Assembly: GCF_050304635.1 (NCBI RefSeq) | Contig: NZ_JBNLDX010000012.1 | Origin: Haliangium sp. | GTDB lineage: Bacteria > Myxococcota_A > Polyangia > Haliangiales > Haliangiaceae | Reading direction: 5' to 3' (one strand) | DNA length: 64,000 nucleotides | In this document: piece by piece, positions 797 to 64,000 of the stretch | How positions within the stretch are numbered: position 1 is the stretch's first letter | How the letters are laid out: each line of letters starts with the position of its first letter | Made by a program: the position numbers and the translations under genes | Notes under the pieces: model-generated | Database searches by the model: none | Seen by the model: the letters and a program-made list of their open reading frames with translations, nothing else | Told to the model about the DNA's origin: nothing

Positions 797-1848
797 GTCT
801 CATCTGCTCCCGAAATCGCACCCCGCCCCTCATCGGGCGAGCCTGACCCCGCGACCACCGGCGAGATCAGCCGGACCTCGTTTGCGTACCAGACCTGCCC
901 CCCGGCCAGCATCACCCGCAGACCCGTACGCATCACCACCGCCACCTGCCGAACCATCCACAGCGCCACCACCGCGCTCAGCCCCGCGCCCACCAGCCCT
1001 GCCAGCGCCGTGACCACCAAGAACCCAAGCCCAAACCCAGACAGGTGCACCAGCGGCCGCCAGTCCCGCGTCACCGCCCCGTAGCCACGCAGCAGCGCCC
1101 GCCGCGCCGCCAGCCGTGCCCCCGGCTCGGCCAGCGCGCGCGCCGTCAGCTCCACCCGGGCGTAATCCACCGCGGCCCAGGTCACCGCCACCAGCGCCAG
1201 CGCCGGGACCAGCCCGGCGCCGCCCCAGCCCACCAGCGCGACCATCTCGACCGCGAGCTCCGCCCGATCACGGATCGCGTACAGCCCGACCCCGGCGACC
1301 ACCCCCGCCAGCCCCAGCGGGATCAACGACCACAGCGCCAAGCGCAGATAGGCAGTGAAGGACACCGCCCCGCCCGCGCCGAACTCCCGAGCCAGCGCGC
1401 GCTGGCGCAGCCGACGCTCGGCCACCGACTCCCGACCCGGCCCGGACGCTCGGTCGACATCTCGGTCGCCCGACCCGGACACCCGGTCACCCACCCGACG
1501 CCCAAGAACATCCCCCAGCAGCACCGCGTTCAGCCCCCCGAGCAAGAACCACGACCACACCGCGTACACCGCGACCGCCCCGACCCCGACCCCCAGCGCC
1601 GCCGCGAACAGCTCTGGGGTCTCGGCCACGACCTGGACCAGACTCACCACGTCGCCGGCCACCGCCCGGTCGAGCAAAGGGCTTCGCGCCCACCCTGCGG
1701 CCACGATCCAGCTCATCATCAGCGCCGCGCCCGCGCCCCACACCACCTGCACCGCGCCCAACCCCAGCACCAGCCCCCAGCGGCGCCGGGCCGCGGCCCA
1801 TCCGGCCCCGATCATGCCCCCCAGCGTGGCGCGTCCGGCGGTCATGGT
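793..1848 (-). CDS. Polytopic integral membrane protein, function unknown
   Basis: ORF 793..2025(-) trimmed to the internal Met (MTAGRATLGGMIG...) at 1848, immediately after the aminopeptidase stop at 1842 (ATGA overlap). It has multiple hydrophobic segments (LVLGLGAVQVVWGAGAALMM, LGVGVGAVAVYAVWSWFLLGGL, LIPLGLAGVVAGVGLYAI). It sits between and is translationally coupled to two recognisable genes. Confidence 0.5.
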   Translation of the reverse strand, partial: TMTAGRATLGGMIGAGWAAARRRWGLVLGLGAVQVVWGAGAALMMSWIVAAGWARSPLLDRAVAGDVVSLVQVVAETPELFAAALGVGVGAVAVYAVWSWFLLGGLNAVLLGDVLGRRVGDRVSGSGDRDVDRASGPGRESVAERRLRQRALAREFGAGGAVSFTAYLRLALWSLIPLGLAGVVAGVGLYAIRDRAELAVEMVALVGWGGAGLVPALALVAVTWAAVDYARVELTARALAEPGARLAARRALLRGYGAVTRDWRPLVHLSGFGLGFLVVTALAGLVGAGLSAVVALWMVRQVAVVMRTGLRVMLAGGQVWYANEVRLISPVVAGSGSPDEGRGAISGADET

Positions 1849-3848
1849 CCCAGCACCTGCATCAGCGTTTGCGCCCAGTACCCCAGCCGTGCCCCCACCC
1901 GCCAAGACGCGCTGCCGTCGCCGACCCGACGCCAGGTACCGCGCCGCGACCCATCGTACAGCAACACCTGCCGGTCCGGGTCCACGACCACCTGCGCGAC
2001 CCGGGCGCTGTGCGCGATCCGCCACCGCTGCCAGCGCTGGTGCCCGGCCGTGTCCCAGCGCTCGCGCAGGCGCGCGCCGTCATCGAACTCGATCTCGACC
2101 TCCACCGGCACCGACACCGCGCCGGTATTCACCACCAGCACCTCGCACACCCAGTCGTCCCGGTCCGGGGCCTGCTCCCGCGACACCACCCGGCGCTCAC
2201 CGTCCCCGTCGTCACGCGGGAACGCCCCGCGCAGCTCGTGCCCGGCGCGGCAGTTGACCTCACGGACCGCGAACGCCGCGTCCCCGACCTGGCGGAAGGC
2301 CGGGTCCAGGAACCAGTCGAGCTCTTGCCCCAGCGCCTGTTCCAGCGCGGCAAAGAACTCCTCGCCGGTGGGGTGTCGGAACCCGTAGCGCTGAGCGTAG
2401 GCGCGCATGGCGGCCCGGAACGGCTCACGCCCCACGGTCCGTTCGAGCGTGGCCAGCGCGGCCGCGGTCTTGCGGTAGGTCGCGGCCCCGTAGGCGCCGA
2501 AATCGGGGAATTCGTACGAGCGGGTCGCGATCGGCACCGGCAGGTGTGCAAAGCCACCCGCCCCGGCGCTGGACAGCTCGGCCCAGCGCGCGTGCAGCCC
2601 GTTCCAGTCGATGCCGCTGGTGCGCTCGCCGAAAAGCTCGTCCATGACCACCGCGTCGGCGTAGTCGTTGACGCCCTCGTCGAGCCAGGCCTCTTCGACC
2701 TCGTTCGAGGCCAGGATCCCCTGGAACCAGTTGTGCCCCACCTCGTGCACGGTGATGAACTCGGGCAGGCGAACGCCCGGGCGCATCAGCGGCATGTCCC
2801 CGGCCGTGGTCACCAGGGTCGGGTACTCCATGCCACCGGCGCCCGCGGTCGCGTCCGGGGGCGGGTCGATGATGCTCATGATCGGCCACGGGTAGGGCAC
2901 GAGCCAGCGGCTGAGCACCTCGATGGTGCCGATCCCGGCCTGCAGGTGGCGGCGCGCGAAGGCCTCCTGGCCGGGCCGGTGATAGACCCGGACCTCGACC
3001 TGGCCCAGCTCGGTCTCGGCCTGGCCGCGCACGACCTGCATGAACGGGTCGGCCATCCAGGCGAAGTCGTGCACGTCTTCGGCCCGGTAGCGCAGGGTGC
3101 GGGTGCCATCGCCGTGGTCCTCGGCCGCCTGCAGCACCCCGGTGGCCGCGACCACGAGCGTGTCGGGCACGGTGAGGGCGACGTCGTAGGTGCCGAAATC
3201 GGCGAAGAACTCGCTCATCAGGTGGAACGGCTCGCAGCGCCAGCGCTCGGTCCCGGGCGGGCCCGTGAGCACGCCGATCTTGGGGAACCACTGCCCGGCC
3301 ATCAGGAACCAGCCCTTGTGCCCCGTGCGCGCGAACACCTCCGGGAACTGGACCCGAAAGTCCATCTCGACCTCGATCTGGGCGCCCGGGGCCACCGGCT
3401 CGGGCAGCACCAGCTCGACCACGGTGCGGTCGGGGCCGGGCGTGCGCAGCGCGGCGCTCAGGTCGCGGCCGGCCACGGCCACCCGGTCCACGTCGATCCA
3501 GCCCCAGCCGGTGTCCGAGGCCCGGGCCCGGCGGTGTTGGCCCTGGGCCTCGCGCATGAACACCGTGGCCTCGCTCTCGAAGGCGTTCATGTACAGGTGA
3601 AAGGGCAGGCGCTCGACCGGGCGCTGAGACGAGTTGGTCCAGGTCAACGTCTGGCGGGCGTCGACCTGCCAGGTGTCGACGTCGAGGCGGGCGTCGATGC
3701 GGTAGTTGGCCAGGCGCGGTGAGCGCGGCACCCCGTCCAGCAGCGGCGGGCGCAGGTCGGGCGCCGGCAGCGGGGTTGTTTCGGGCTCCGGCGCCGAGCC
3801 GCACGCGCTCGCGAGCACGCACGGGAGCAGCCAACTGCAGACGCGCAT
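1842..3848 (-). CDS. M1-family zinc aminopeptidase, lipoprotein
   Basis: 668 aa. N-terminal lipoprotein signal MRVCSWLLPCVLASAC. HEXXH-18-E zincin motif HEVGHNWFQGILASNEVEEAWLDEG and the M1-type overall layout. Confidence 0.85.
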   Translation of the reverse strand: MRVCSWLLPCVLASACGSAPEPETTPLPAPDLRPPLLDGVPRSPRLANYRIDARLDVDTWQVDARQTLTWTNSSQRPVERLPFHLYMNAFESEATVFMREAQGQHRRARASDTGWGWIDVDRVAVAGRDLSAALRTPGPDRTVVELVLPEPVAPGAQIEVEMDFRVQFPEVFARTGHKGWFLMAGQWFPKIGVLTGPPGTERWRCEPFHLMSEFFADFGTYDVALTVPDTLVVAATGVLQAAEDHGDGTRTLRYRAEDVHDFAWMADPFMQVVRGQAETELGQVEVRVYHRPGQEAFARRHLQAGIGTIEVLSRWLVPYPWPIMSIIDPPPDATAGAGGMEYPTLVTTAGDMPLMRPGVRLPEFITVHEVGHNWFQGILASNEVEEAWLDEGVNDYADAVVMDELFGERTSGIDWNGLHARWAELSSAGAGGFAHLPVPIATRSYEFPDFGAYGAATYRKTAAALATLERTVGREPFRAAMRAYAQRYGFRHPTGEEFFAALEQALGQELDWFLDPAFRQVGDAAFAVREVNCRAGHELRGAFPRDDGDGERRVVSREQAPDRDDWVCEVLVVNTGAVSVPVEVEIEFDDGARLRERWDTAGHQRWQRWRIAHSARVAQVVVDPDRQVLLYDGSRRGTWRRVGDGSASWRVGARLGYWAQTLMQVLGP

Positions 3849-42179: not shown

Positions 42180-45857
<3,678 letters not shown>

Positions 45858-46119
45858 GGGGCGGGTTCCAAGAGCCCAATCCGGAAATACGACCAGAAGT
45901 GACGATCTTTCTCCTATTGCCGCGCCGACAGGGGACGGCCCGCCGCGACACGGTCGGCGCCGGTAGCCGGGATCGATGGACGGCCCGCTCGCTCGTGCCG
46001 GAGTCGGCGCCACCACTGCGTCGCCCCGCGAGCGCCTGCCGCCGCCAGCGCTGGTTGCCCCGGCGGCGCCGCCGATGCGCCCCTTCCGCGCCCTTGGGCG
46101 CTCGTGCTAAACGTGGCTC

Positions 46120-48102
<1,983 letters not shown>

Positions 48103-49423: not shown

Positions 49424-52400
49424 ATGCTCGCGTCCGTGCCTGCGGTCCTGGTTCTCGTCCTCGTGCTGGTGCTCGTGCCGGTCGCCCCGGTTGGGGCCGC
49501 GCCGGCGTCAGCGCCCGCCGACGCCGGCCCCGATGAAGTGACCACGGCCGGCGAGACCGGGACCGCGGCCGGTGAGGCCGAGCCCGAGCCAGGCCTCGAC
49601 CCCAGCGGTGACGATCTGGAGGCCTTCCGGCGTCATCAGGTCGCGCTGCTCGACGGCAAGCTCGCGGTCGTCAAGCGCCAGCTCGAGGCCGTGCAGGGCC
49701 TGGACCCAACTCTCCCGGCGGTGCCGGCGCTGCTGCCGGGTGGCCTTGGGCTCGAGCAGGTGGTGGCCGATCTGCTCGCGGTCGGGCTCGGTGACGAGCC
49801 GCCCCCGCTCGATCTCGGCAGCGCCGACGCGGTCGACAGCTTCCTGCCGGTGCTCGATCGGGGCCGTCAGGGGCTCGCGGTCGCGGCCGCAGACGCACGT
49901 GCGGTGGAGGCGGCGGTGGTGGTCCAGTGGTCTGTACCAGCGCCTGTGGACGCGGGCCCAGCACCGGACCTCGGGCGCCGGCGCCGGCGCCCCGGAGCGA
50001 CCCCGGACGCCGGCGTGGCGAGCATCGACGCCGACCCGGTACCGCCGCCGCCGGTCGATGCCCAGCTCGAACGGGTTCGGCGCGAGCGCGAGTTGGCCGA
50101 GGCCCGCGTGATCTTGCTCGACGCCATTCGGGTCTACTTGGTCGCGAGCCAGCCCGCGCGTCGCGAGGCGGAGGCCCAGGACAGCGCCGAACGCGCGATC
50201 GCCGAGCGCGATCAGCAGGCCGAGCGAGCCCGGCGCGAGGCCGCCGCGGCCCGCCAGAGCGCCCTCGAAGAGCAGGAGCGGGCGGCGTCGCTGGCCGAGG
50301 CCTCGCTGCGCAAGGAGGAGGCCGCGATGCACGAGGTCGCCGAGCAGCTCGCCCGCTTCGAACGAGTCGTCGTGCTCGCCCGCGAGCGTGAGATCGGGCG
50401 CGAGCATGACCGTCTGTCCGCGCAGGAGGCCGAGTTGGCCAAGATCGAGCCCGCCGCCACGCGCTACCAAGACGTCCAACAGGCCCTGCTCGAGGCCCGC
50501 TTCGCCCTCGTCCCAGCGCGCTTGTTGGACCTACTCGCCGCCGCCCGCTGGCCTCGCCCGGCGCCGCCGGTGCCGGCGCCCCCGCCGGTGCTGAGCGAGG
50601 AGGTGCGCGAGCTGCCCGGCGAGTACCAGGCCGCCGTGACCGAACTCGAGCACCTGCGCGACCGCCTGGAGCGGGAGGCCGCGCGCAAGCGCGAGGAGGT
50701 GCGGGAGCTGTGGCGAGCCTGGGCGGCGCTGCGCTACCTCCACCTGGGCAAGCTGTACGCGCTGCGCATCGACACCCGGGCCCAGCTCGCGCCCGAGCAC
50801 GCGGCGGTACGGGCCCCGCTGTCGGCGTCCGCGACCATCGACGAGCTGCGCGGCGAGCTGGCCCAGGTCGTGATCGCGCTCGGCTACTGGGCCAGCCGCA
50901 GGCTCGACGCCGCCCGCGCCGGGCTCGGTCTGCTGCGCGACCTGAGCGTCATCGGCGAGCTGCTGTGGTGGCTGTTCGACATCGTCGTGATCGTCTTGCT
51001 CTTGCGCTTCTGCCTGCGCGGCTGGGACGGCTGGATGCAGCGCCTTGTCGAGTTCATCGGGACCACGCTCCCAGTGGGGCCGTGGACCCTCACGCTGGCC
51101 CGGCTGTGCGACTTCGCCCGCGCCTTCGGCCCCCCGCTGCTGTGGCTCGGCGCGGCCCGAGTCGTGTACTGGCAGCTTGGACAGGACCACGGCGACGCCG
51201 GCATCCAGGCCCCGCCCGAGGCTGAGGTCGGCTATCGACTGGTGTTCTGGGTGGCCCTGTTCCGGGCCCTCATGCACTTCATCGACCGCCTGTCCCGGTA
51301 CTTCGAGCAACGCGCCCATGAGCGCGCGCGCGAGTACGCCGAGCTGCAGGCGCAGGACAGCGCCTTCGCCGAGGAGCACCCTGGGGAGGCGTCCGACCAG
51401 CCCCCGCCGGCTCCCGAGTCGGCCCCGGTCCAGGTCCCGTGGCCGCTCCTGGCCCGGGCCTGGCGGATCCTCTCCGGCTACCTAGCGGTAGTCTTCATCT
51501 TGCTTTCGCTCGTCGAGTACGGCCTCGACCGCGGCGTGCTATGGACCCTGGCCACCCGCTACGCCTGGTGGGGCGGGGTCTTGCTCCTGGCGATCTGCCT
51601 GCATGTGTGGCGCGCCGCCATCGCCGACGTGGTCGCCGGCCGGCTGGCGCGGGAAGGTGCGCTGGCCCGACTCACCGCGCGCCACGGCCGGCGCCTGTAT
51701 GGGGCCGTGGTGAGCGCGCTGGCCCTGGTCGTGGTGCTGGCGCACCGCCTGGGCCTGTTCGTGCGCGACGAGGTCGCCGGCCTGGACGCCACCAAGCGGC
51801 TGCTGGCGTTTCTGTTTCGGCGCCGGGTCGAGAAGCAGGCGGCCGAGCGGGGTCGTGTGCTCGAACAGCCCCTGCCCCTGCCCGAGGCCCTGGTGGCCCA
51901 GTTCCCCACCAATGCCATCGGCCAGGCCGACCGCCCGGTCAAGCTCGAGACCCTGTCCGAGATCAAAGCCTCCTACAAGGCCTGGCAGAAGGATCGGGTG
52001 CAGGGCTCGGTGGTCGTGGTCGGCGCCACCGGCATGGGCAAGAGCACGCTCCTGGCCATGCTGGAGGGCGAGCTGGAGGCGCCGGTGCTGAGCGCCGAGA
52101 TCACCACCAAGTACACCCAGCCGCGCGCGCTGGTGGCGGCCTTGGGCGGGCTGTTGGGGCTGTCCCCGGCGCTCGCCGGCGACGAGGTGGCCGGCCCGCG
52201 CGTATTCACCGACGAAGACGAGCTGATCGAGGCCATCTGCGCCCAGCCCCCGACGATCATCGCCCTCGACGGGTGCCACAACTTCTTCTTGCGCCAGGTG
52301 GGAGGCTTCGCCGCCTGGGAGGCCTTCACCCGCATCGTCAACCAGAGTTGCGAGCAGGTCTTCTGGGTCCTCACCTTCAACGACGCCGCCTGGGACTACC

Positions 52401-52975
52401 TGCGTAACATCGCCGGCGGGGTGGCCTACTTCCGTCGGGTGGTCGAGATCGGGCGCTGGAGCGACGAGCAGCTCCGGCGCCTGCTGCTCACCCGCATGCG
52501 CCGGGCCGGCTACCGGCCCAACTTCACTGACCTCCTGGTCACCCGCATCGAAGGAGTCGAGACCCGAGCCCAGGTCATCCGCACGTCCCAGGGCTACTTT
52601 CGGTTGTTGTGGGACTTCACCGACGGCAACCCCCGGGTGGCCACTCACTACTGGCTGCGCTCATTGGTGCCCGACCCCGACAAGCCGCGGGTGCGGGTGC
52701 ACCTGTTCGCGGCTCCTCGCATCGAGGAGCTGGAAGAACTCTCGGACGACATGGCCTTCGTGCTCACCGCCGTGGTCGAGCACGAGAACCTCGACGCCGA
52801 CGAGCTGACCGCCGTGTCCAACCTGCCCGCCGACTTCTGCCGGTTCGCGCTCGATTACTGCTGCGAGCACGGCTACCTGCGTGAGGGCGGCGGCAGCGGC
52901 CGCTTCCGGCTCGCCACCCACTGGCAGCAGCCCATCATCCGCTACCTCAAGCGCCGGCACTTCTTGTACTCATGA
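49424..52975 (+). CDS. Large membrane protein: signal peptide + ~400-aa periplasmic coiled-coil domain + ~6 TM helices + cytoplasmic P-loop NTPase domain
   Basis: 1183 aa. Leu/Val-rich signal. Long E/R/A-rich heptad region. TM segments (LLWWLFDIVVIVLLL, LVFWVALFRALMHFI, LSGYLAVVFILLSLV, WWGGVLLLAICLHVW, VVSALALVVVLAHRL). Walker A VVVVGATGMGKSTLLAML. Walker B TIIALDGCHNFF. Stop overlaps the start of the MscS gene (ATGA). Confidence 0.7.
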   Translation: MLASVPAVLVLVLVLVLVPVAPVGAAPASAPADAGPDEVTTAGETGTAAGEAEPEPGLDPSGDDLEAFRRHQVALLDGKLAVVKRQLEAVQGLDPTLPAVPALLPGGLGLEQVVADLLAVGLGDEPPPLDLGSADAVDSFLPVLDRGRQGLAVAAADARAVEAAVVVQWSVPAPVDAGPAPDLGRRRRRPGATPDAGVASIDADPVPPPPVDAQLERVRRERELAEARVILLDAIRVYLVASQPARREAEAQDSAERAIAERDQQAERARREAAAARQSALEEQERAASLAEASLRKEEAAMHEVAEQLARFERVVVLAREREIGREHDRLSAQEAELAKIEPAATRYQDVQQALLEARFALVPARLLDLLAAARWPRPAPPVPAPPPVLSEEVRELPGEYQAAVTELEHLRDRLEREAARKREEVRELWRAWAALRYLHLGKLYALRIDTRAQLAPEHAAVRAPLSASATIDELRGELAQVVIALGYWASRRLDAARAGLGLLRDLSVIGELLWWLFDIVVIVLLLRFCLRGWDGWMQRLVEFIGTTLPVGPWTLTLARLCDFARAFGPPLLWLGAARVVYWQLGQDHGDAGIQAPPEAEVGYRLVFWVALFRALMHFIDRLSRYFEQRAHERAREYAELQAQDSAFAEEHPGEASDQPPPAPESAPVQVPWPLLARAWRILSGYLAVVFILLSLVEYGLDRGVLWTLATRYAWWGGVLLLAICLHVWRAAIADVVAGRLAREGALARLTARHGRRLYGAVVSALALVVVLAHRLGLFVRDEVAGLDATKRLLAFLFRRRVEKQAAERGRVLEQPLPLPEALVAQFPTNAIGQADRPVKLETLSEIKASYKAWQKDRVQGSVVVVGATGMGKSTLLAMLEGELEAPVLSAEITTKYTQPRALVAALGGLLGLSPALAGDEVAGPRVFTDEDELIEAICAQPPTIIALDGCHNFFLRQVGGFAAWEAFTRIVNQSCEQVFWVLTFNDAAWDYLRNIAGGVAYFRRVVEIGRWSDEQLRRLLLTRMRRAGYRPNFTDLLVTRIEGVETRAQVIRTSQGYFRLLWDFTDGNPRVATHYWLRSLVPDPDKPRVRVHLFAAPRIEELEELSDDMAFVLTAVVEHENLDADELTAVSNLPADFCRFALDYCCEHGYLREGGGSGRFRLATHWQQPIIRYLKRRHFLYS

Positions 52976-53967
52976 CCCAGCCCCAACCGCGTCTCCTCGT
53001 GTTCGCCGGCCGCCGACGCCGCGCCGGCGGCTCGCTCGCAATCTCCCTCGTGGGGGTCCTCGTCGGGATCTTCGCATGGGCCTGGCCGGCCCCGGCCCGG
53101 GCCCAGGAGTTGGCCGGCATCGACCTGGCCCGGCTCATCGAGCAGGTCAGCCCGGCCGGGCTGGTGGTGTCGCTGATCGTCATCGCCATCGCGCTGCTGG
53201 TACTCCGCTTCATCACTGGTCTGACCGACTCCCTGAGCAAGCGGTTCTCGGACCGGCGCCTGATGCTGCAGCAGATCAGCACCGTGCTTCGGTTCATCAT
53301 CTACGTGCTCACCAGCATCCTGGTGGTGAGCGCGTCGATTCGACTCGAGGGCCAGGTCCTGGTCGCGCTGGCGGTGGCCATCGGCTTCGCGCTCAAGGAC
53401 CTGGCGTCGTCGGTGCTGGCCGGCATCATCATCCTCTTCGATCGGCCCTTTCAAGTCGGTGACCGTGTCACCGTCGCCGGCCACTACGGCGAGATCCTCG
53501 CCATCGGGCTGCGCTCCGTGCGTCTGGTCACCCTCGACGACTCGCTGGTGACCATCCCGAACAATCGTTTTCTCACCGAAGCGGTGGTGTCGGGCAACGC
53601 CGGCGCGCTCGACATGCAGATCGTCATGGACTTCTACGTCGCCATCGACAGCGACCTGCGCACCGCCAAGCGCATCGTATACGAGGCGGTTCGGACCAGC
53701 CGCTTCGTCTACCTGGAAAAGCCAGTCGTAGTGCTGGTGACCGATATCATCGAGTCGTCCTACTTCGCGACACGGCTGCGTGCGAAGGCTTACGTGCTCG
53801 ACGTGCGCTATGAGAAGCTGTTCGCGTCGGATGTAACCGAGCGGGTCAAAATGGCGTACCTCGACCAGGGGATTCGCCCTCCCTCGGTGCTTCACCGCGG
53901 CACCGACGCCAGCCGCCAGGCACCTGCGCACCCGCCCGCGCCGGTTGCAAGTTCATCTCCCGAGTGA
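52972..53967 (+). CDS. MscS-family mechanosensitive ion channel
   Basis: Three TM helices followed by ILFDRPFQVGDRVTVAGHYGEILAIGLRSVRLVTLDDSLVTIPNNRF, the canonical MscS TM3/beta-domain signature. Translationally coupled to the upstream ATPase gene. Confidence 0.9.
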   Translation: MTQPQPRLLVFAGRRRRAGGSLAISLVGVLVGIFAWAWPAPARAQELAGIDLARLIEQVSPAGLVVSLIVIAIALLVLRFITGLTDSLSKRFSDRRLMLQQISTVLRFIIYVLTSILVVSASIRLEGQVLVALAVAIGFALKDLASSVLAGIIILFDRPFQVGDRVTVAGHYGEILAIGLRSVRLVTLDDSLVTIPNNRFLTEAVVSGNAGALDMQIVMDFYVAIDSDLRTAKRIVYEAVRTSRFVYLEKPVVVLVTDIIESSYFATRLRAKAYVLDVRYEKLFASDVTERVKMAYLDQGIRPPSVLHRGTDASRQAPAHPPAPVASSSPE

Positions 53968-53971
53968 GACA

Positions 53972-56900
53972 ATGGGAGACGCGCACTTCGCGTCGCTGCC
54001 AAGCTCAAACGACTCCGTATTTGCCATGACCGACCAGGGTGACGAACGTTCGTTGCCGAGACGGGCCACCTCTACGGCCGCCGACCTCGATGACGACACG
54101 GTAGTCGAGGACCAACCAGCGCCGGACGAGCGGACGTGGGCCGCGCTGCACGCCAAGCTCGCCAGCGGTGCGCGCGCGCGTGCCGCGCGCCGGGAGGACG
54201 CGCTCCGGCGGGAAGCCGCCACCCAAAAAGACCCGACCCACGAGGACGTCACCCAGGAAGACGAGACCGTGCGCCGGAACCCGGTCTCTCCTCACGAGGA
54301 GCCCACCCGGCGCTACGGAGAGCCACGGGCGAGGAACCTCCGCGCCCGCGATCGCCTCGCCAGCGAAACCTACGACGTCGACATCGACGCGCCCACCGGG
54401 GTGCTCGCGCGCCCGCGTCCGTATCGAGTCGTACGATCGGACGACAAAGAGCTCGAAGGCGGGCGGCCCGGGCAGCCACCGCCGGCGGCGTTGCCGTCCC
54501 TGGCCGACGTGGTGACCTCGTTCGAGTCGCCGGCGGAGCCCGGCACCCGCGCGACGGCGGTGGCCGAACCTTCGACTCTGTCGATCTCGGTCGAGTCGCT
54601 GCCCGACGTCGAGGATCGGCTCGGTTCGGAGCTCAGTCTGGTCCAGGCGACCGGTGAAATCCCCACGGTGACCGCCGTGGCCGGGCGTCACGGCGAATAT
54701 CTGCCGGTGGGGACGAGCGTAGGGCGGTACGTGGTGCTGGGCGCCCTAGCCGTCGGCGGCATGGGCGTGGTCTACACTGCCTACGACCCCGAGTTGGACC
54801 GCAAGGTGGCCCTCAAGCTGATGCGGGTGAACCCCGGACGATCGGTCGACAAGGCCTGCGCCCGGCTCCTGCGTGAGGCCCAGGCTTTGGCCCGGTTGGC
54901 CCACCCCAACGTCATCGCGGTATACGACGCTGGGCGCTTGGGCGAGCAGGTGTTCGTGGCTATGGAGTTAGTCGAGGGCGTCACTCTGCGTCGTTGGCTC
55001 GACGAGGAGACCCCGGCGCTGAGCGACATCCTGGCCGCGTTCTGGGCCGCGGGGCAGGGCCTGGCGGCTGCTCACGCGGCCGGCCTGGTCCACCGCGACT
55101 TCAAGCCCGAGAACGTCATGATGGGCGCTGACGGGCGTGTGCGCGTGCTCGATTTCGGTCTGGCCCGAGCGGCGCAGCAAGCCGCCGACTCGTCGCTGCC
55201 CGGCTCGGACTCGCCACCGGACGCGGAGGTCGCGGGCGCCGGCGTAGAGACCGCGCCCGAGCCGGCCGCCGAGGTCGGTGTCGACACCACCGTCGACGAC
55301 GACGCGCACGGAGAGGATCCGCACGCGCCGTTGGCGCAGTTCAACCCGGCGGCCGTGGAGAGGCCCGGCACCCTCACCCGAGCCGGGGTGTCGAACCTCG
55401 CGTCTCGGCGCGTCCTCCACAACCCCTTGACCGCTCACGGCGCGCTGGTGGGGACCCCCGGGTACATGGCTCCGGAGCAGTACGGCGGCGGGAGCACGGA
55501 CGCACGCACCGATCAGTTCTCGTTCTGCGTGGCCTTGTACGAGGCCGTGTGTGGGCATAGGCCATTTTCGGGCACCCGTCCCGAAGAGGTTGCTTATCAG
55601 ATGGCGTCGGGCCAGATCGAGCCACCACCGCCGCAGGCGCGGACCCCGGCCTGGCTGGTGACCATGATGATCCGTGGCCTGTCGGCTGAACCCGAGCAGC
55701 GCTACCCCTCGATGAATCACCTCCTGGCCGACCTCGAGCACGGCATGCAGCGGGGCGCGCGGCTGGTGCGCATGGGCACGGCCATCGGCATCGCCGCCCT
55801 CGTGATGATGGTGGTCGTGGGCGCGGCCTTTCTGGTTACGGGTGAGCGTGCCCGCAGCGCGGCCTTGTGCCAAGGCAGCGAGGAGCGCCTGGCCACGGTC
55901 TGGAACGACGACCTGGCCGCCACCGTGGCTGCGGGCTTCGCGGCCAGCGGGCGCCCACACGCCAGCGAGGCCTTCGAGCAGGTGGCGCGTGAGATCGAGA
56001 CCTACGGCCGCGATTGGGTCGCCATCCGCGTCGACACCTGCGAAGCCACTCACATCCGCGGCGAGCGCTCGGAGGCCATGCTCGACCTGAGCATGAGCTG
56101 CCTCGATCGCCGCTTGGGCACCCTGCGCGCCCTCACCGGCGTGTTCGTGCGCGAGATCGGCGACGACGGCGGCCTCGACGGCGCCGTGGTCGATCGTGCC
56201 CTGGGCGCGGTCCGACAGTTGCCGGGGCTGCGCGGCTGCACCGATGAGCTGGCGCTGCGCGACACCTACCCGATGCCGGGCGATCCCGAGCTGCGCCAGG
56301 CCATCGCGACCCTCACTGAGGACGTCGACGACGTCGAGGCCCGGATCCAGATCGGTCAGTATCGGGCGGTGTCGGAGTCGCTGGCGAGGCTGGTACAGCG
56401 CGCCGATGAGCTCGACTTCCCGCCTTTGCAGGCGCGCACACGCTATCTGTCGGGCCAGACACAGCACGCCCTGGGCAACCTGAGCAGCGCCGAGATCAGG
56501 TTCCACGAGGCGGTCGGCATGGCGGCCGAGGCCCGTGACGATCGCCTGCTGGCGGCGCTGTGGACCAAGCTCATGTGGCTGGTGGGCGCGGGTCAGGGAC
56601 GTTATCAAGAGGCGCTGCGCATGCGTCCCATGGCGGCGGCGTCGATCTCGCGGGCGGGGGGCGACGGCGCCTTGGAGGCCGACTTGCTCGCCCACGCCGG
56701 CATGCTCTTGGCGCGGCTGGGCGAGAACGCCGAGGCCGAGTCGATGCTGCGCCGGGCGGTCGACCTGGGCACGGCGACCCTCGGCGCCGACCACCCCCAG
56801 GTGTCCAAGTACATGAGCTTTCTGGGCGAGCTGTACTTCGCCCAGGCGGACTACGACATGGCCTTGGAGTCCCAAGAGCGCTTGATCGAGACCACCCAAG

Positions 56901-57991
56901 ACGTGTGCGGCGCCGAGCACCTGTTCTTGGTCGAGCCCCTGATCAGCATCGGCCGCATCCACACCGAGCAGAGTCGCTTCCAGGAGGCCCTGGGCCGCTT
57001 CCAGCAGGCCGCCGCCATCGAGCGCGCCAACCTCGGCGACGACGCCCCCGGCATGGCTCGGCACCTGCTGGACATCGGCCTGGCCCAGCTCATGCTTGGC
57101 GATCACGACGCCGCCGAGAAGGCCCTGGACCAAGCCTGGCAGATCGCCGATCGCGCCTACCCGGCGGATCATCCCCGCCTGGCCGAGGTGCTATTGGGCC
57201 GGGGGCGGCTGCACATGGCCCGTGGTCAGCTCGGCGTCGCCGAGAACGAGTTGGAGCGCGCCCGGGTGATCTGCGAGGCCACCTTCGGGCGCCGCCACGA
57301 GCGCCACGCCGAGGCCGTGTGGCACCTTGGGGCCGTGGCCCTGGCCCGGGGCGCTCTCGACCTCGCCGAGGAGCGGTTCCGCGAGGCGCTCGCCGTCCGC
57401 GAGGCGTTGCTCGCGCCCGATCACCCCGCGGTGGCCGAGGCCCTGCACGGGCTGGGTCGCACGCTCGTGGCCACTGGCGCTTATGATCAGGCCGAGGCCG
57501 CGCTGCAGCGGGCGTTGTCGATCTACGAGCGCCGCGAGGAAGGCGAAGGCGCGCGTGCGGCGGCTGTGCTCGCCGATCTAGGCGCGATGTGGGCCGCCCA
57601 GGGCGAGCACGCGTCGGCGCTCGACCAACTCTCGCGCGCGCTTGCGCTGAAGGAGCGCGTGCTCGGCGCGGACCACCCCGACCTGGCGGCGACCCTCACC
57701 GCATTGGGGCGGGTCCACCTTGCGCTCGGCGACCCCGAGGTCGCCGCTGTGTCGCTGCGACGGGCGATGACGATCCGCGAGGCCCGGCCCGGTCCGGCCC
57801 TGGCGCTGGCCCGCACCCGCCTCGCCCTGGCCCGCGCGCTGTGTGCGGCCCGGCTGTCCGAGTCAGACCTGAGCGAGGCCCGCAAGCTGGCGACGCGCGC
57901 GCGCGCTGAGCTACTCGAGGCCGACATCGAGAGTCGGCCCCAGAGTCGTCTCGCCGCCCAACTCGACGCCGTGCTGACACAGTGCCGCTGA
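53972..57991 (+). CDS. Ser/Thr kinase - single TM - large TPR-repeat domain protein
   Basis: ATG 53972, 4 nt after the MscS stop. Kinase: GGMGVVYTA, VALKLM, LVHRDFKPENVMM, DFGLAR, GTPGYMAPE. TM GTAIGIAALVMMVVVGAAFLV. About 700 aa of TPR-like repeats (LAEVLLGRGRLHMARGQLGVAENELERA, etc.). Confidence 0.85.
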   Translation: MGDAHFASLPSSNDSVFAMTDQGDERSLPRRATSTAADLDDDTVVEDQPAPDERTWAALHAKLASGARARAARREDALRREAATQKDPTHEDVTQEDETVRRNPVSPHEEPTRRYGEPRARNLRARDRLASETYDVDIDAPTGVLARPRPYRVVRSDDKELEGGRPGQPPPAALPSLADVVTSFESPAEPGTRATAVAEPSTLSISVESLPDVEDRLGSELSLVQATGEIPTVTAVAGRHGEYLPVGTSVGRYVVLGALAVGGMGVVYTAYDPELDRKVALKLMRVNPGRSVDKACARLLREAQALARLAHPNVIAVYDAGRLGEQVFVAMELVEGVTLRRWLDEETPALSDILAAFWAAGQGLAAAHAAGLVHRDFKPENVMMGADGRVRVLDFGLARAAQQAADSSLPGSDSPPDAEVAGAGVETAPEPAAEVGVDTTVDDDAHGEDPHAPLAQFNPAAVERPGTLTRAGVSNLASRRVLHNPLTAHGALVGTPGYMAPEQYGGGSTDARTDQFSFCVALYEAVCGHRPFSGTRPEEVAYQMASGQIEPPPPQARTPAWLVTMMIRGLSAEPEQRYPSMNHLLADLEHGMQRGARLVRMGTAIGIAALVMMVVVGAAFLVTGERARSAALCQGSEERLATVWNDDLAATVAAGFAASGRPHASEAFEQVAREIETYGRDWVAIRVDTCEATHIRGERSEAMLDLSMSCLDRRLGTLRALTGVFVREIGDDGGLDGAVVDRALGAVRQLPGLRGCTDELALRDTYPMPGDPELRQAIATLTEDVDDVEARIQIGQYRAVSESLARLVQRADELDFPPLQARTRYLSGQTQHALGNLSSAEIRFHEAVGMAAEARDDRLLAALWTKLMWLVGAGQGRYQEALRMRPMAAASISRAGGDGALEADLLAHAGMLLARLGENAEAESMLRRAVDLGTATLGADHPQVSKYMSFLGELYFAQADYDMALESQERLIETTQDVCGAEHLFLVEPLISIGRIHTEQSRFQEALGRFQQAAAIERANLGDDAPGMARHLLDIGLAQLMLGDHDAAEKALDQAWQIADRAYPADHPRLAEVLLGRGRLHMARGQLGVAENELERARVICEATFGRRHERHAEAVWHLGAVALARGALDLAEERFREALAVREALLAPDHPAVAEALHGLGRTLVATGAYDQAEAALQRALSIYERREEGEGARAAAVLADLGAMWAAQGEHASALDQLSRALALKERVLGADHPDLAATLTALGRVHLALGDPEVAAVSLRRAMTIREARPGPALALARTRLALARALCAARLSESDLSEARKLATRARAELLEADIESRPQSRLAAQLDAVLTQCR

Positions 57992-59283: not shown

Positions 59284-59428
59284 TTCGGAGCAAGTGCACC
59301 AACAAGACACACGTCCGGCGCCGCGCATGGGCTGGTAGCCGTGGCAAATCCGGCACTTGCCGCCGGCACGGTGCTTGCTCTTGGCCTGGAGACCGGTGAG
59401 CAGCAAGTCCACAAGGAGAGCAAGGCCC
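59284..59428. promoter_or_regulatory. Divergent intergenic region between kynA (-) and the MVP-like gene (+)
   Basis: Strong AAGGAGAG Shine-Dalgarno 8 nt before ATG 59429. Imperfect inverted repeat gcaagtgcacc ... ggcacttgcc/ggtgcttgc. Confidence 0.4.
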
Positions 59429-61462
59429 ATGGCAGAACGAGACATTCGCGAACGCGACATCCTGGTTGCCCCCAACGAGTACGCCTACGTGCAGGACCTC
59501 ACCAAGGGAGACATCGTCCTCTACGTCGGCCCCACCAAGATCAGCCTGTCCAACACCGAGCGCATGATCATCCTGCGCGACGGCCGCTTCGTGCCCGTGC
59601 GCGGCGACGAGGCCGGGCTGGGGGTACACAAGTTCGTCGCGGCCTCATCATCGCAGTACATCATCCTCGAGAACCCGCCCCAGGACCCCGACGACAAGCC
59701 GGTCAAGGGCGCAAACTCGGCCATCCCGCTCCGCTTCGGGCGCAAGGTCGTCGTGCCCGGCCCGGCCGAGTTCCCGCTCTGGCCCGGGCAGCGGGCCCAG
59801 GTCATCGACGGCCACGAGCTGCGCCTGGACCAGTACCTCGTCGTCCGTGTGTACGACGATATGGGCGACGGCGAGCCGATCGGCACCGAGCACATCATCT
59901 GCGGCACTGACGTGAGCTTCTACATCCCGCCCAGCGGCCTGGAGGTGGTGCCCAACCGCAACGGCAGCTACGTGCGCCGGGCCTGGCGTATGGAGCGCAA
60001 CAAGGGCCTGCACCTGCGCGTGCGCGCGCCCTTCGAGGTCGGCCCCGCCGCGCAGGTGCCCGAGGGCCGATACCTGGCCGGGCAGGACATCTTCCTGCGC
60101 GACCGCGAGGGCATGTTTTTCCCCTCCGACAACCTGGACGTCGTGGGCGAGGTGGCTCCGATCCCGCTGGCCGAAAACGAGGCCATCTACGCGCGCGAGT
60201 TGGGCACGGGCAAGCTCACCACCGTCGAGGGTCCGGTGAACTACCTGGTCGATCCCACCCGCGAGGAACTGGTCACGCGTCGGCTCGACGAGCGCCGGGC
60301 GGTGCTGTTCCGGCTCGACACCGACAGCCGCGACCCCAACCGGGCGTGGTCGATCTACGTGCCCCCGAGCACAGCGGTGATGATCACGGCCAAGAACAAG
60401 CGCGAGGTGGTGAGCGGGCCCCAGACCCGCATCCTGCACTACGACGAGGAGCTCGAGGTTCTGACCTTATCGACCGGGCGACCGAAGAGCGACGAGGAGC
60501 TCTTGCCCACCTGCTTCTTGCAGGTACAGGGCAACAAGGTGTCGGACCTGGTCCGGGTCAAGACCTCCGACCACGTCGGGCTCGAGATCCTGCTGTCGTA
60601 TCGAGTGTCGTTCGTGGGCGACTCCGAGCGCTGGTTCAACGTCAAGGACTATGTCGGCCTGCTATGCGACCACCTCGGTTCGATCATCCGCGCGGCCGCG
60701 CGGACGAGTTCGATCGAGACCTTCCACGGCACCAGCACTGACATCTTGCGCACCGCCATCCTGGGCGCGCGCGGCGACGACGGCGAGCGCGAGGGGCGGC
60801 ACTTCAAGGAGAACGGGATGTGGGTCTACGACGTCGAGGTGCTCGACGTGCGCATCCTGGACCAGGACGTCGAGCGCATGCTGCAGGAGGCCCAGCGCAT
60901 GGCGATCGTCTCGGCGATCACGCGCAGGCAGGAGGAGCTGCGACTGGGCGACGAGAACCTCAAGGAGTCGGTCAACCGAGAGATCTACGGCGCCCAGATG
61001 GAGACCCTGGCCAAGGCTGCCGAGCACGAGGCCGTGAGCCGCACCGTGGAGCTGGCGCGGATCGGGACCATCATCGAGCGCGACCGCCTGGACAAGATCG
61101 GCCGGGCCGAGCACGAGGCTGAGGCCGACGCGATCCGCAGCCGGGCTCGGCTCGAGATCGCCGACCGCGAGGCCGGGTTGGCGCGGGAGGCCCTGGCCGC
61201 GCGCTCGGCGGCCTTTCGCGAGCAGATGGAGGCGCTGCAGCCCGAGCTCATCGCGACCCTCAAGGGCCTGGCTGGGCAGCAGCTCGCCGGCGCTTTGTCC
61301 AAGAACCTGTCGCCGCTGGCCATCCTCGGCGGCGAGAGCGTGGCCGAGGTGGCCGCGCGCTTGCTCGACCGTCTGCCCCTGGGCTCCAAGTCGGGCCCGG
61401 CGGCCGACATCCAAGGCATCCTTGGCCTGGTGCCGTCGCCGGACCAGGGCGAGTCGGCGTAG
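59429..61462 (+). CDS. Major vault protein (MVP) homolog: N-terminal MVP repeats + SPFH/band-7-like shoulder domain + coiled-coil cap helix + disordered tail
   Basis: 677 aa. ILVAPNEYAYVQDLTKGDIVLYVGPTKISLSNTERMI aligns to eukaryotic MVP [37 protein letters not shown]. Further matches PLAENEAIYARELGTGKLTTVEGP (vs [21 protein letters not shown]), VLTLSTGRPK (vs VLSLSAGRPK), DHVGLEILLSYRVSF, FHGTSTDILRTAILG, ENGMWVYDVEVLDVRILDQ, then a long Ala/Glu/Arg coiled coil. Confidence 0.8.
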   Translation: MAERDIRERDILVAPNEYAYVQDLTKGDIVLYVGPTKISLSNTERMIILRDGRFVPVRGDEAGLGVHKFVAASSSQYIILENPPQDPDDKPVKGANSAIPLRFGRKVVVPGPAEFPLWPGQRAQVIDGHELRLDQYLVVRVYDDMGDGEPIGTEHIICGTDVSFYIPPSGLEVVPNRNGSYVRRAWRMERNKGLHLRVRAPFEVGPAAQVPEGRYLAGQDIFLRDREGMFFPSDNLDVVGEVAPIPLAENEAIYARELGTGKLTTVEGPVNYLVDPTREELVTRRLDERRAVLFRLDTDSRDPNRAWSIYVPPSTAVMITAKNKREVVSGPQTRILHYDEELEVLTLSTGRPKSDEELLPTCFLQVQGNKVSDLVRVKTSDHVGLEILLSYRVSFVGDSERWFNVKDYVGLLCDHLGSIIRAAARTSSIETFHGTSTDILRTAILGARGDDGEREGRHFKENGMWVYDVEVLDVRILDQDVERMLQEAQRMAIVSAITRRQEELRLGDENLKESVNREIYGAQMETLAKAAEHEAVSRTVELARIGTIIERDRLDKIGRAEHEAEADAIRSRARLEIADREAGLAREALAARSAAFREQMEALQPELIATLKGLAGQQLAGALSKNLSPLAILGGESVAEVAARLLDRLPLGSKSGPAADIQGILGLVPSPDQGESA

Positions 61463-61968: not shown

Positions 61969-62219
61969 CGAGCTCATCGCGCCCCGCAAGGGCTTGGCCG
62001 GGCAGCAGCGTGCCGGCGCCTTGTCCAAGGATCTGTCGCCACTGGCCATCCTCGGCGGCGAGAGCGTGGCCGAGGTGGCCGCACGCTTGCTGGAACGCCT
62101 CCCCCTTGGACCCAAGTCCGGCCCGGCGGCCGACATCCAAGGCATCCTTGGCCTGGTGCCGTCGTCGGACCAGGGTGAGTCGGCGCAGCCGCCTGGTCGT
62201 CCCGGGGCTGGAGCGCGCG
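61969..62219 (+). pseudogene. Copy 2 of the duplication: orphan fragment encoding the last ~74 aa of the MVP-like protein (stop TAG->CAG), embedded in non-coding-looking low-GC sequence
   Basis: Encodes LIAPRKGLAGQQRAGALSKDLSPLAILGGESVAEVAARLLERLPLGPKSGPAADIQGILGLVPSSDQGESAQ inside track ORF 61547..62359, whose upstream 140 aa have no protein-like character. Confidence 0.45.
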
Positions 62220-62503
62220 GCCGACGCGGCGACGGCGTGCGGCAACTTCGGGCCAGTGAAAGCACTCACACCCTCGGAGCTCGCGTTGAGTTGTGGCTGG
62301 ATGCCGCGCTGCGTCACGAAGGTTTCGACACGTGTGTCAGCTTGGACACAGGCGCTTGAGCGATGTAACCCCCAACTGCAACAAAAGGAGCGGCCGCTCT
62401 TCCAGAGTATCTCAGGTGCCTATCTGACGGGGGTGAGAGCGATTCAGTCAGCAGTGGAACGACCGCCGCAGGTAGTTCCGCTAGCGAGATTGTCGGAGGC
62501 GGT

Positions 62504-63898
62504 GTGTATGATGCAACCGGGATGGCATTCGAGAAAGCACCTCGTCTATTCCGCGACCCAGTACACTTGCAGCTTCGCTACGAGCGGGTCGAAGACGAAC
62601 GGCACATCCCTTCACCAGCATTCGGTGACAAGCGCTTCGGCTGGGTGATGCAGCGGCTTATCGACACCCCAGTCTTCCAGAGGCTACGGCACATCCGTCA
62701 GAACGGGTTGACCAATTTAGTGTTCCATGGCGCCGAGCACTCACGTTTCAGTCACTCGATGGGTGTGGCCTATCTGGCCGGCGAGATGTACGATCGCATC
62801 TGCCGCAACATGGGTGAAGAGCCCGATGACGAGACCCGGCTGGCGACATGTGCGGCAGGACTGCTGCACGACATCGGACACGGTCCCTTCTCGCATACTC
62901 TCGAGGAGGCTCTCGATGTTCTAGGGATCGAGTTCGCTCACGAAGCGATGACCTTGCGTATCATCAGAGAGTCGGTTGTCGCCGAGACTCTGGGCCATGT
63001 CGATCAGACCTTTCCCGAACGCGTCGCCGAGTATATTAGTAAGAAGGTAAAGAAACCACATTGGAGTCACAAATTAGTGTCGAGTCAGCTCGATGCAGAT
63101 CGGCTCGATTATCTGCTGCGCGATGCAGCGGCATGCGGACTTCGCGGCCATACTTACGATTTAGCTCGTCTTTTGGATATGCTGCGGCATGTGGATGGAC
63201 AATTGGTCGGTGTGGATCGCAAGGGGTTGGAAACCGTCGAGGGATATTTGGTCGCTTTGGATCAAATGTATCGAGCCATCTACTTCCATCACACCGTGCG
63301 GGCTGCGAGCGTGCTTCTGACCTCCGTCCTTCGTCGTGCCGTCATGCTGGCAAGCAATGGAGACAAAGATGTATTCTCAACGCGAGACCGACGTCATCCA
63401 TTGAAGCGATTTTTCGACACAGGTGGACAGTGCGACCTTGAGACATATTCCCACTTGGGCGAATTCCACGTCTGGGTCCTCGTTGACGAATGGAGAGGGC
63501 ACCCGGACCCGATCCTTTCAGATCTTTCTCGGCGACTCTACGAGCGCCGTCTACCAAAGACAATACAGTTACCGGCTAAGCCCAAGCAGTCATTAGAGCT
63601 GATAGCCAAAGCTCGTGATCTCACCTGTAAGCGCATCGCCCATGTTGATGCCACATTGGTTGACTTCTACGTCGCCGTAGATGAGGCCGAGCGAACCAGC
63701 TACAAGCTGTATGACTGGCGAGAGGAGGAAAAGCCGGACGAGTCTATCTACATCTGTGAACGTAACGGCAAGAGCTGGCCTATTCACGCTTATGGTGAGA
63801 GCAAGATTATTAATGCGCTGAAGGATACCCGCTACGTCTCACGGCTGATGTTCCCGTATGAGATTCGGGACGATATGCAAGCAGGAGCACTACGATGA
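62504..63898 (+). CDS. HD-domain phosphohydrolase of the dGTPase/SAMHD1-like (COG1078) dNTP triphosphohydrolase family
   Basis: GTG start with GGAGG Shine-Dalgarno. HSRFSHSMGVAYLA, AAGLLHDIGHGPFSH, QLDADRLDYLLRDAAACGL. About 52% GC vs ~70% host background. Confidence 0.8.
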   Translation: MYDATGMAFEKAPRLFRDPVHLQLRYERVEDERHIPSPAFGDKRFGWVMQRLIDTPVFQRLRHIRQNGLTNLVFHGAEHSRFSHSMGVAYLAGEMYDRICRNMGEEPDDETRLATCAAGLLHDIGHGPFSHTLEEALDVLGIEFAHEAMTLRIIRESVVAETLGHVDQTFPERVAEYISKKVKKPHWSHKLVSSQLDADRLDYLLRDAAACGLRGHTYDLARLLDMLRHVDGQLVGVDRKGLETVEGYLVALDQMYRAIYFHHTVRAASVLLTSVLRRAVMLASNGDKDVFSTRDRRHPLKRFFDTGGQCDLETYSHLGEFHVWVLVDEWRGHPDPILSDLSRRLYERRLPKTIQLPAKPKQSLELIAKARDLTCKRIAHVDATLVDFYVAVDEAERTSYKLYDWREEEKPDESIYICERNGKSWPIHAYGESKIINALKDTRYVSRLMFPYEIRDDMQAGALR

Positions 63899-64000
63899 GT
63901 ATGTCGAGAGCAATGACTACGACGCAGGGGCTGCTCGCGCTCATTGCAGCGAACGGTGGTTGTATCGAACAGCGCATCAAAATGCAGAAGGAAGCCTACA
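63896..64000 (+). CDS. Start of an uncharacterised gene translationally coupled to the HD phosphohydrolase (runs off window)
   Basis: ATG 63896 overlaps the TGA of the HD gene (ATGA), preceded by AGGAG at -8. Open frame MSMSRAMTTTQGLLALIAANGGCIEQRIKMQKEAY to the window end. Same low GC as the HD gene. Confidence 0.4.

Follow-up and report, generated by a model that had tools for sequence, protein, structure and literature searches.

We analyzed a 64,000-nucleotide window of DNA from Haliangium sp. (Myxococcota; contig NZ_JBNLDX010000012.1; G+C content approximately 70%), in which three consecutive genes encode a predicted membrane protein with an AAA+ module (gene 1), an MscS-family channel (gene 2) and a Ser/Thr protein kinase (gene 3). 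The coordinates of the genes and of the parts of gene 1 are collected in Table 1. Judged by the sequence, the translations and Pfam, the open reading frames (ORFs), the ATGA overlap between genes 1 and 2 and the 4-nt spacing to the kinase are all as an initial annotation of this stretch had described them. The stop codon of gene 2 (TGA, 53965-53967) is followed by 'gaca' and then by the ATG of gene 3 at 53972. The gene 1 product, when read from codon 5, is identical to WP_428261846.1, which NCBI lists as a hypothetical protein of Haliangium sp. In gene 1, AAA_22 (E 5e-6) and a weak AAA_16 are the only Pfam matches, and no NCBIfam family matches it; in gene 3, Pfam finds Pkinase together with TPR_12/TPR_10.

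Table 1. Positions of genes 1 to 3 and of the parts of gene 1 in the window (AF2, AlphaFold2 model; aa, amino acids; TM, transmembrane).
Feature	Window position	Strand	Gene 1 residues	Description and basis
Gene 1	49424-52975	+		1183 aa; membrane AAA+ protein, presumed accessory/regulatory subunit of the pair (ORF, translation)
Signal peptide or signal anchor	49424-49498	+	~1-25	Kyte-Doolittle peak at residues 2-20
Acidic linker			~25-60	Disordered (AF2)
Periplasmic all-helical domain	49601-50938	+	~60-505	AF2, composition; periplasmic location by prediction
Membrane domain	50942-51781	+	507-786	Six hydrophobic helices (AF2, family-averaged hydropathy)
Amphipathic Arg-rich helix			788-808	AF2
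AAA+ alpha/beta core	51947-52453	+	~842-1010	ORC/Cdc6/TnsC/BrxC (AAA_22) type; predicted cytoplasmic
P-loop core			862-1010	AF2
Walker A	52022-52048	+	867-875	GATGMGKST, direct sequence reading
Walker B	52256-52273	+	945-950	IIALDG, direct sequence reading
Helical lid, winged helix and basic tail	52463-52972	+		Lid motif YFRLLWD...GNP at residues 1058-1070
Helical lid			1014-1079	AF2
Winged helix			~1100-1165	AF2
Stop/start overlap of genes 1 and 2	52972-52975	+		ATGA, 4 nt, junction tcATGAcc, direct sequence reading
Gene 2	52972-53967	+		MscS-family channel, 331 aa
Gene 3	53972-57991	+		Ser/Thr protein kinase, one TM helix, long TPR region

In all of the approximately 39 related loci that have downstream sequence, we found that a gene 2-type MscS gene lies directly downstream of the gene 1 homologue and on the same strand. 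The loci came from several searches. The first protein matches gave three loci, and the MscS gene abuts the 3' end of the gene 1 homologue in all three. A scan of species-representative genomes, which were mostly Myxococcota metagenome-assembled genomes (MAGs) together with bins labelled Acidobacteriota and Gaiellaceae, gave 17 loci, and the MscS gene is directly downstream in each of the 16 that have downstream DNA. The same arrangement was present at 14 of 14 loci from a metagenome scan and at both loci of two close relatives (64% and 47% identity over the C-terminal 690 residues of gene 1). When we performed the search in reverse, starting from gene 2-type MscS proteins (52-65% identity), a protein of approximately 1000-1240 aa with AAA_22 was encoded directly upstream at 4/4 loci. 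Across the related loci, identity is 24-42% for gene 1 and 39-68% for gene 2. Among 19 junctions, ten overlap by 4 nt and three by 1 nt (13/19 overlapping), and five have gaps of 2-22 nt. No neighbor other than the MscS gene, upstream or downstream, is common to the loci examined. Thus, the coupling of gene 1 to an MscS channel that the initial annotation proposed is borne out, as the two genes are neighbors on one strand, with a tight or overlapping junction, in each of the related loci that we examined, and genes 1 and 2 are a strictly conserved, translationally coupled two-gene module that is widespread in myxobacteria.

The two genes are separate ORFs in all loci examined (in different frames in Haliangium sp.), and we found no fusion of the two among the best 120 gene 2-type proteins, all of which are 262-357 aa long. 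At one locus (L011, positions 1-3252), the two homologues apparently lie in one frame with a single stop codon between them, which makes it a candidate for read-through or fusion, or an assembly artefact. A group of near-identical metagenome contigs (L038-L042) carries, approximately 2 kb upstream of the pair and on the opposite strand (approximately 2583-3074, minus strand), a distant MscS-like gene with 26-29% identity to gene 2.

A word-indexed protein search for gene 1 initially gave few relatives; an exhaustive profile search, in which one representative stands for each cluster at 50% identity, identified 2347 at E<=1e-30. The 150 top-scoring of these 2347 all have E < 1e-162; most have a length of 850-1270 aa and match the profile over almost its full extent. 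Where their sources give a name, it is 'hypothetical protein' or 'AAA family ATPase', and those with a named source come from Haliangiales, Byssovorax, Polyangiaceae and 'Deltaproteobacteria' MAGs. The gene 2 clade comprises more than 120 clusters at an identity of at least 52% (52-72%). Haliangium ochraceum also appears to have the pair: on a contig whose MscS is identical to that of H. ochraceum DSM 14365, the partner gene lies upstream.

Gene 2 is, as judged from its sequence, a complete MscS-type protein. Its layout consists of an N-terminal extra helix or signal peptide, three TM helices, a beta domain and an alpha-beta domain, and Pfam recognizes the pore-lining third TM helix and the beta domain as MS_channel_2nd (PF00924; E 1.3e-19, 70.5 bits against a cutoff of 20.2). 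Residues 63-304 align with residues 30-269 of E. coli MscS at 25% identity (E 5e-15 by BLASTP), and this alignment spans TM1-3, the beta domain and the alpha-beta domain; MscS chains in the Protein Data Bank (PDB) match residues 63-301. By sequence, gene 2 scores slightly better against the channel module of MscK than against MscS: in NCBIfam, MscK positions 827-1036 (E 1.5e-22), and in the PDB, MscK 7uw5 (E 1.2e-18, versus 5.6e-14 for MscS). Gene 2 also has an extra N-terminal hydrophobic segment (residues 22-40) that ends in ARA followed by QE. In approximately half of the gene 2 orthologues, a clear signal peptide precedes a conserved periplasmic motif, ..A.F[IV]RWGG, which stands immediately before TM1; the others have no signal peptide and retain a similar short periplasmic N-terminal stretch. 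Gene 2 and this half of its orthologues differ from MscS (YggB) in what looks like a cleavable signal peptide and in the short motif conserved at the periplasmic N-terminus, and gene 2-type channels differ from it further in that, in the loci examined, they come with a dedicated upstream partner gene. To our knowledge, all solved MscS-family channels are heptamers, and by analogy the gene 2 pore is expected to be heptameric.

To describe the partner, we used an AlphaFold2 model of gene 1 that was built on an alignment of 32 family members (mean predicted local distance difference test score, pLDDT, 83). In this model, the C-terminal part has an alpha/beta core, a helical lid and a C-terminal winged helix, and structural matches to the full model are AAA+ proteins only. 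In the list of comparisons of the gene 1 ATPase with known proteins, the values are 15.1 for Cdc6, 14.4 for the N-terminal part of BrxC, 14.3 for TnsC, 14.0-14.1 for archaeal Orc1/Cdc6 and 11-12 for CED-4, plant NLRs and MalT. A PDB sequence search with the ATPase part gave generic P-loop matches only. AAA_22 matches 30/32 family members, with a best E of 7e-14.

Both the Walker A (GxxxxGK[ST]) and the Walker B (hhhhD) motif reported in the initial annotation are present in gene 1, and their key residues are conserved. In Walker A, G870 and G872 are found in 32/32 members and K873 in 31/32; the Walker B aspartate D949 is found in 29/32. At the position that follows it (950), 14 members have N and 13 have D, whereas G occurs in 2 and Q and H in 1 each, so that a catalytic glutamate is absent from the five commonest residues at this position among the 32 members. 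Two arginines, R1024 (31/32) and R1060 (30/32), are almost invariant, and the lid motif YFRLLWD...GNP and the basic C-terminal tail (L-K-R-R-H-L-L) are conserved. The winged-helix region has a net charge of –6 to +4 over the 32 members with a median near 0, and only the C-terminal tail is basic. We considered the winged helix as a DNA binder, and its near-neutral charge lends this no support. We read the gene 1 ATPase as a probable nucleotide-binding switch with slow or no hydrolysis and not as an obvious DNA binder. An ATPase of this kind, which lacks the catalytic glutamate, would be expected to act as an ATP/ADP-dependent conformational or oligomerization switch and not as a motor.

This module has likenesses to two groups of NTPases. 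Its Walker A matches that of the ORC/Cdc6, TnsC/MuB and BrxC proteins (AAA_22/AAA_16). In contrast to these proteins, the gene 1 module is tethered to a polytopic membrane domain, has no catalytic glutamate after the Walker B aspartate, has a winged helix for which DNA binding is doubtful and is paired with a channel instead of DNA machinery. STAND NTPases (Apaf-1/CED-4, NLRs, MalT) are nucleotide-dependent oligomerization switches, and gene 1 shares with them the layout of nucleotide-binding domain, helical domain and winged helix, a GxP-type motif in the helical domain (GNP, residues 1068-1070) and a Walker B of the hhhhD[DN] type. Gene 1 differs from STAND proteins in that it stops right after the winged helix and thus lacks a sensor made of C-terminal TPR, WD40 or LRR repeats; its N-terminal periplasmic and membrane domain is the candidate sensor instead. 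Pfam matches to nSTAND and NACHT models are weak and occur in 5-9 of the 32 family members.

In the N-terminal part of gene 1, the model shows an all-helical domain with helices at residues 62-91, 134-169, 211-285, 290-340, 344-373, 399-453 and 468-503 (pLDDT mostly 85-97). The longest reach 75 residues, and three of them (211-285, 290-340 and 399-453) are 50-75 residues long. This domain is rich in A/L/R/E and has no Pfam match in gene 1 or in the 32 family members scanned. Gene 1 homologues with classical signal peptides exist (one of them, P0002, has AVAQP and an n-region of positive charge), so the domain should be periplasmic. The initial annotation called it a periplasmic coiled coil; the long helices are there in the model, and it is from these helices that the label derives, but a heptad-based coiled-coil heuristic was indecisive.

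The membrane domain contains six helices in the model (507-548, 553-587, 598-651, 673-701, 705-740 and 760-786), in which E599 is invariant; W729, R730 and R799 are nearly invariant (at least 90%). The helix at 760-786 has a His-Arg interruption and is flanked on both sides by strongly positive segments. The earlier figure of about six TM helices is right if it is taken as the number of hydrophobic helices; by the positive-inside rule, probably five of them cross the membrane and the sixth (760-786) lies at the cytoplasmic face. We prefer the five-crossing topology because it is the only arrangement that places the ATPase in the cytoplasm, and the charges of the loops agree with it. The products of genes 1 and 2 are both predicted to be integral membrane proteins with periplasmic N-termini.

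The order of parts in the pair parallels that of MscK (KefA) and MscM (YjeP), in which a signal peptide, a helical periplasmic domain of approximately 450 aa and extra membrane helices are followed by the MscS module. The initial annotation had gone further and described gene 1 as the N-terminal two-thirds of an MscK-type channel. When we compared gene 1 with MscK and MscM (structures PDB 7uw5/7ux1 and 11sm), this parallel order stood and homology was non-significant by Pfam, hhalign and Foldseek. The Pfam families MscS_porin (PF12795) and MscS_TM (PF12794) have no match in the 32 family members, even at E<=1. In hhalign, the gene 1 family reaches a probability of 4.6% against MscK alone and of 4.1% against MscK and MscM together (P 0.01, with P 0.13 for a reversed-sequence control), which is non-significant; the latter alignment is colinear and joins gene 1 residues 10-827 with MscK residues 16-786. 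Structure prediction likewise gave no significant match to the MscK fold. We modeled residues 1-830, the periplasmic and membrane parts, separately with AlphaFold2 (pLDDT 74), and among 350,542 PDB chains searched with Foldseek this model has no match at E<=1e-3; its first-ranked match is the open-state E. coli MscK 7ux1_A, with E 0.084, a probability of 0.21 and a TM-score of 0.10.

These three MscK signals are faint and each is non-significant, and they agree in direction. MscK is the closest architectural analogue of the pair, and remote homology of gene 1 to it is possible but unproven. The pair differs from MscK in that MscK is a single polypeptide and the pair is encoded by two genes, in the AAA+/lid/winged-helix module that sits at the point of the split, and in the number of extra crossing helices, which is eight in MscK and about five (an odd number) in gene 1. 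We know of no characterized MscS-family channel that carries an AAA+/lid/winged-helix module. Among channels with ligand-binding domains, the bCNG channels are MscS-family members with a C-terminally fused cyclic-nucleotide-binding domain whose ligand is a cyclic nucleotide. The pair resembles them in joining an MscS-type pore to a cytoplasmic nucleotide-binding regulatory module, and it differs from them in that an AAA+ domain serves as this module and belongs to a polytopic subunit of its own. In agreement with the initial annotation, which knew of no such system, our literature search found no pairing of MscS with an ATPase, AAA or STAND protein and no publication that describes a dedicated AAA+ partner for an MscS-family channel.

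Taken together, these data suggest, at a probability of about 50%, that genes 1 and 2 encode a two-subunit inner-membrane MscS-type channel in which the accessory subunit couples envelope sensing to a nucleotide switch. We favor a heteromeric channel because the pairing is strict and has shown no alternative partner, because both products are membrane proteins and because the stop codon of one gene overlaps the start codon of the next, which favors stoichiometric co-production. In such a channel, gene 2 would supply the MscS-type pore and the long periplasmic helical domain of gene 1 would report the state of the envelope. The five to six membrane helices of gene 1 may pack around the gene 2 pore as trans-acting paddles; we propose this role because, in chimeras of YnaI and MscS, peripheral paddle helices set the gating threshold (PMC12375004). 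The AAA+/lid/winged-helix module of gene 1 would change its conformation or oligomeric state with the bound nucleotide, and the nucleotide state would license or tune the opening or the assembly of the channel. In this way, the release of solutes could be linked to the cell's energy state or to a signal from the envelope.

The neighborhoods of three loci fit a role in osmotic or ion homeostasis, although this evidence is anecdotal. On the contig whose MscS is identical to that of H. ochraceum DSM 14365 (L025, 5279-13279), the pair converges on an OpuA-type glycine-betaine ABC operon (OpuAC, permease and ABC-CBS ATPase). At a second locus (L044, 2021-8554; GCA_964493735.1, CAZBPN010000015.1), a gene for an OmpA-like peptidoglycan-binding protein overlaps the start of the gene 1 homologue, DUF432 and a second, canonical MscS follow the gene 2 homologue, and the opposite strand carries genes for a Na+/H+ exchanger and a TrkA-N/C-Usp protein, so that the pair may be part of a larger envelope or ion-homeostasis operon in that lineage. 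At a third locus (L001), a trehalase gene is found near the pair.

Several points weigh against a two-subunit, nucleotide-switched channel. The physical complex of the two products and the nucleotide control of gating are both steps that we infer. The topology of gene 1 comes from hydropathy and the positive-inside rule alone, and if all six hydrophobic helices were counted as crossing, the ATPase would end up outside the cytoplasm. A Walker B without the catalytic glutamate could also signal that the domain has lost its activity. The usual target of the ORC/Cdc6, TnsC and BrxC relatives is DNA and not channels, and osmoregulatory neighbors are found in just three of the approximately 39 loci.

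A more specific and more tentative proposal, which we consider possible but clearly less probable, is that the pair represents a new class of nucleotide-controlled MscS-family channel. Here a separate sensor subunit, which may have split off from the N-terminal part of MscK and would then be a very distant relative of it, would oligomerize through its ORC/STAND-like AAA+ module with the heptameric pore, perhaps at 7:7, to license or gate opening. If this is correct, it would be the first bacterial mechanosensitive-type channel under the control of an ATP-binding partner and the first AAA+ protein of the initiator/STAND group with an ion channel as its dedicated partner. The prevailing view of MscS-family channels is that of self-contained valves gated by lipid tension, whose known variation consists of fused extra helices or ligand-binding domains. 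An obligate, coupled AAA+ partner would add a layer of control by energy state, envelope signal or regulated assembly, and AAA+ modules of the initiator/STAND type would gain a channel as a client beside DNA or death effectors. The gene 1 family comprises thousands of sequence clusters with no annotation beyond generic AAA_22, and H. ochraceum is cultivable and sequenced, which makes the hypothesis experimentally tractable.

An alternative that we consider unlikely is that the two proteins are merely co-expressed and act independently, with gene 1 as a periplasm-spanning envelope ATPase that couples to the cell wall in the manner of ExeA/GspA and gene 2 as an ordinary osmotic valve in the same stress operon. 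ExeA/GspA proteins also belong to AAA_22, the peptidoglycan-binding gene that overlaps the gene 1 homologue in L044 would fit a cell-wall function, and gene 2 has every MscS domain and by its sequence needs nothing else. However, in ExeA/GspA proteins a cytoplasmic AAA_22 domain comes first and is followed by a single TM helix and, in the periplasm, a peptidoglycan-binding domain. In gene 1 the order of these parts is reversed and the membrane domain is polytopic, and we found no PG_binding or other periplasmic Pfam domain, enzymatic or otherwise, in gene 1 or in the 32 family members. Moreover, the order of the two genes and their overlapping codons are kept over the approximately 39 loci despite the low identity of the gene 1 homologues, which points to stoichiometric co-production, and in the four reverse look-ups the gene 2 clade was never found without gene 1.

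It is also improbable that the pair is an anti-phage or conflict system, in which a membrane-anchored ORC/STAND/BrxC-like NTPase would detect infection, either from a disturbed envelope or from a ligand in the cytoplasm, and would then open the MscS pore, causing abortive infection by depolarization or solute loss. The weak nSTAND matches in a few members, the variable neighborhoods and the transposases near the pair at two loci (L023 and L027) are consistent with such a system, and membrane P-loop defense proteins such as Tmn do exist (PMC13001434). In PADLOC-DB v2, however, neither gene 1 nor gene 2 has a match at E<=0.01 (the kinase domain of gene 3 matches kinase models), and we therefore rejected a known defense system as a candidate. 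There are no defense genes nearby, the neighbors being housekeeping or osmoregulatory. The effector swapping that is typical of STAND defense systems is not seen, as the MscS partner is invariant; it is also strongly conserved across the more than 120 clusters of its clade, and the pair looks lineage-wide in Myxococcota.

The initial annotation had proposed a three-gene system, a split MscK-like channel whose ATPase gating module would be controlled through phosphorylation by the co-expressed TPR kinase; this is very improbable, because although the kinase is probably co-transcribed here, beginning 4 nt past the MscS stop codon with no terminator-like site between the genes (a promoter and terminator scan is uninformative in DNA of 70% G+C), none of the other loci, those of the closest relatives (64% and 47%) among them, has a kinase gene immediately after the pair, so that only the order of genes 1 and 2 is kept, and the MscK homology of gene 1 is non-significant. 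In three loci a kinase gene is found within a few kb of the pair, on the other strand or at another position. Kinases are common in myxobacterial genomes, so these scattered neighbors are unremarkable. We conclude that the gene 3 kinase is a lineage-specific neighbor that lies outside the conserved unit and is not a third component.

In gene 3 itself, approximately 240 disordered residues precede the kinase domain, which Pfam matches in two separate stretches. One hydrophobic helix (residues 604-622) lies between the kinase domain and a TPR region of approximately 700 aa, and a simple topology would place the TPR part outside the cytoplasm.

Elsewhere in the window, we noted four further features. 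An ORF of 701 aa (59357-61462, plus strand) matches Pfam MVP_shoulder (E 8e-29) and Vault_3 and so encodes, in a bacterium, a homologue of the major vault protein of eukaryotes. A 1278-aa helicase of the UvrD/REP type (42180-46016, minus strand) has an N-terminal extension of approximately 560 aa with no Pfam match. The stretch from 62001 to 64000, which covers an ORF with an HD domain (62504-63898), has a G+C content of 0.575 compared to approximately 0.70 elsewhere in the window and may mark foreign or unusual DNA. Finally, an aconitase-family protein (46120-48102, plus strand) has its swivel domain (Aconitase_C) N-terminal to the catalytic domains, which is a permuted order.

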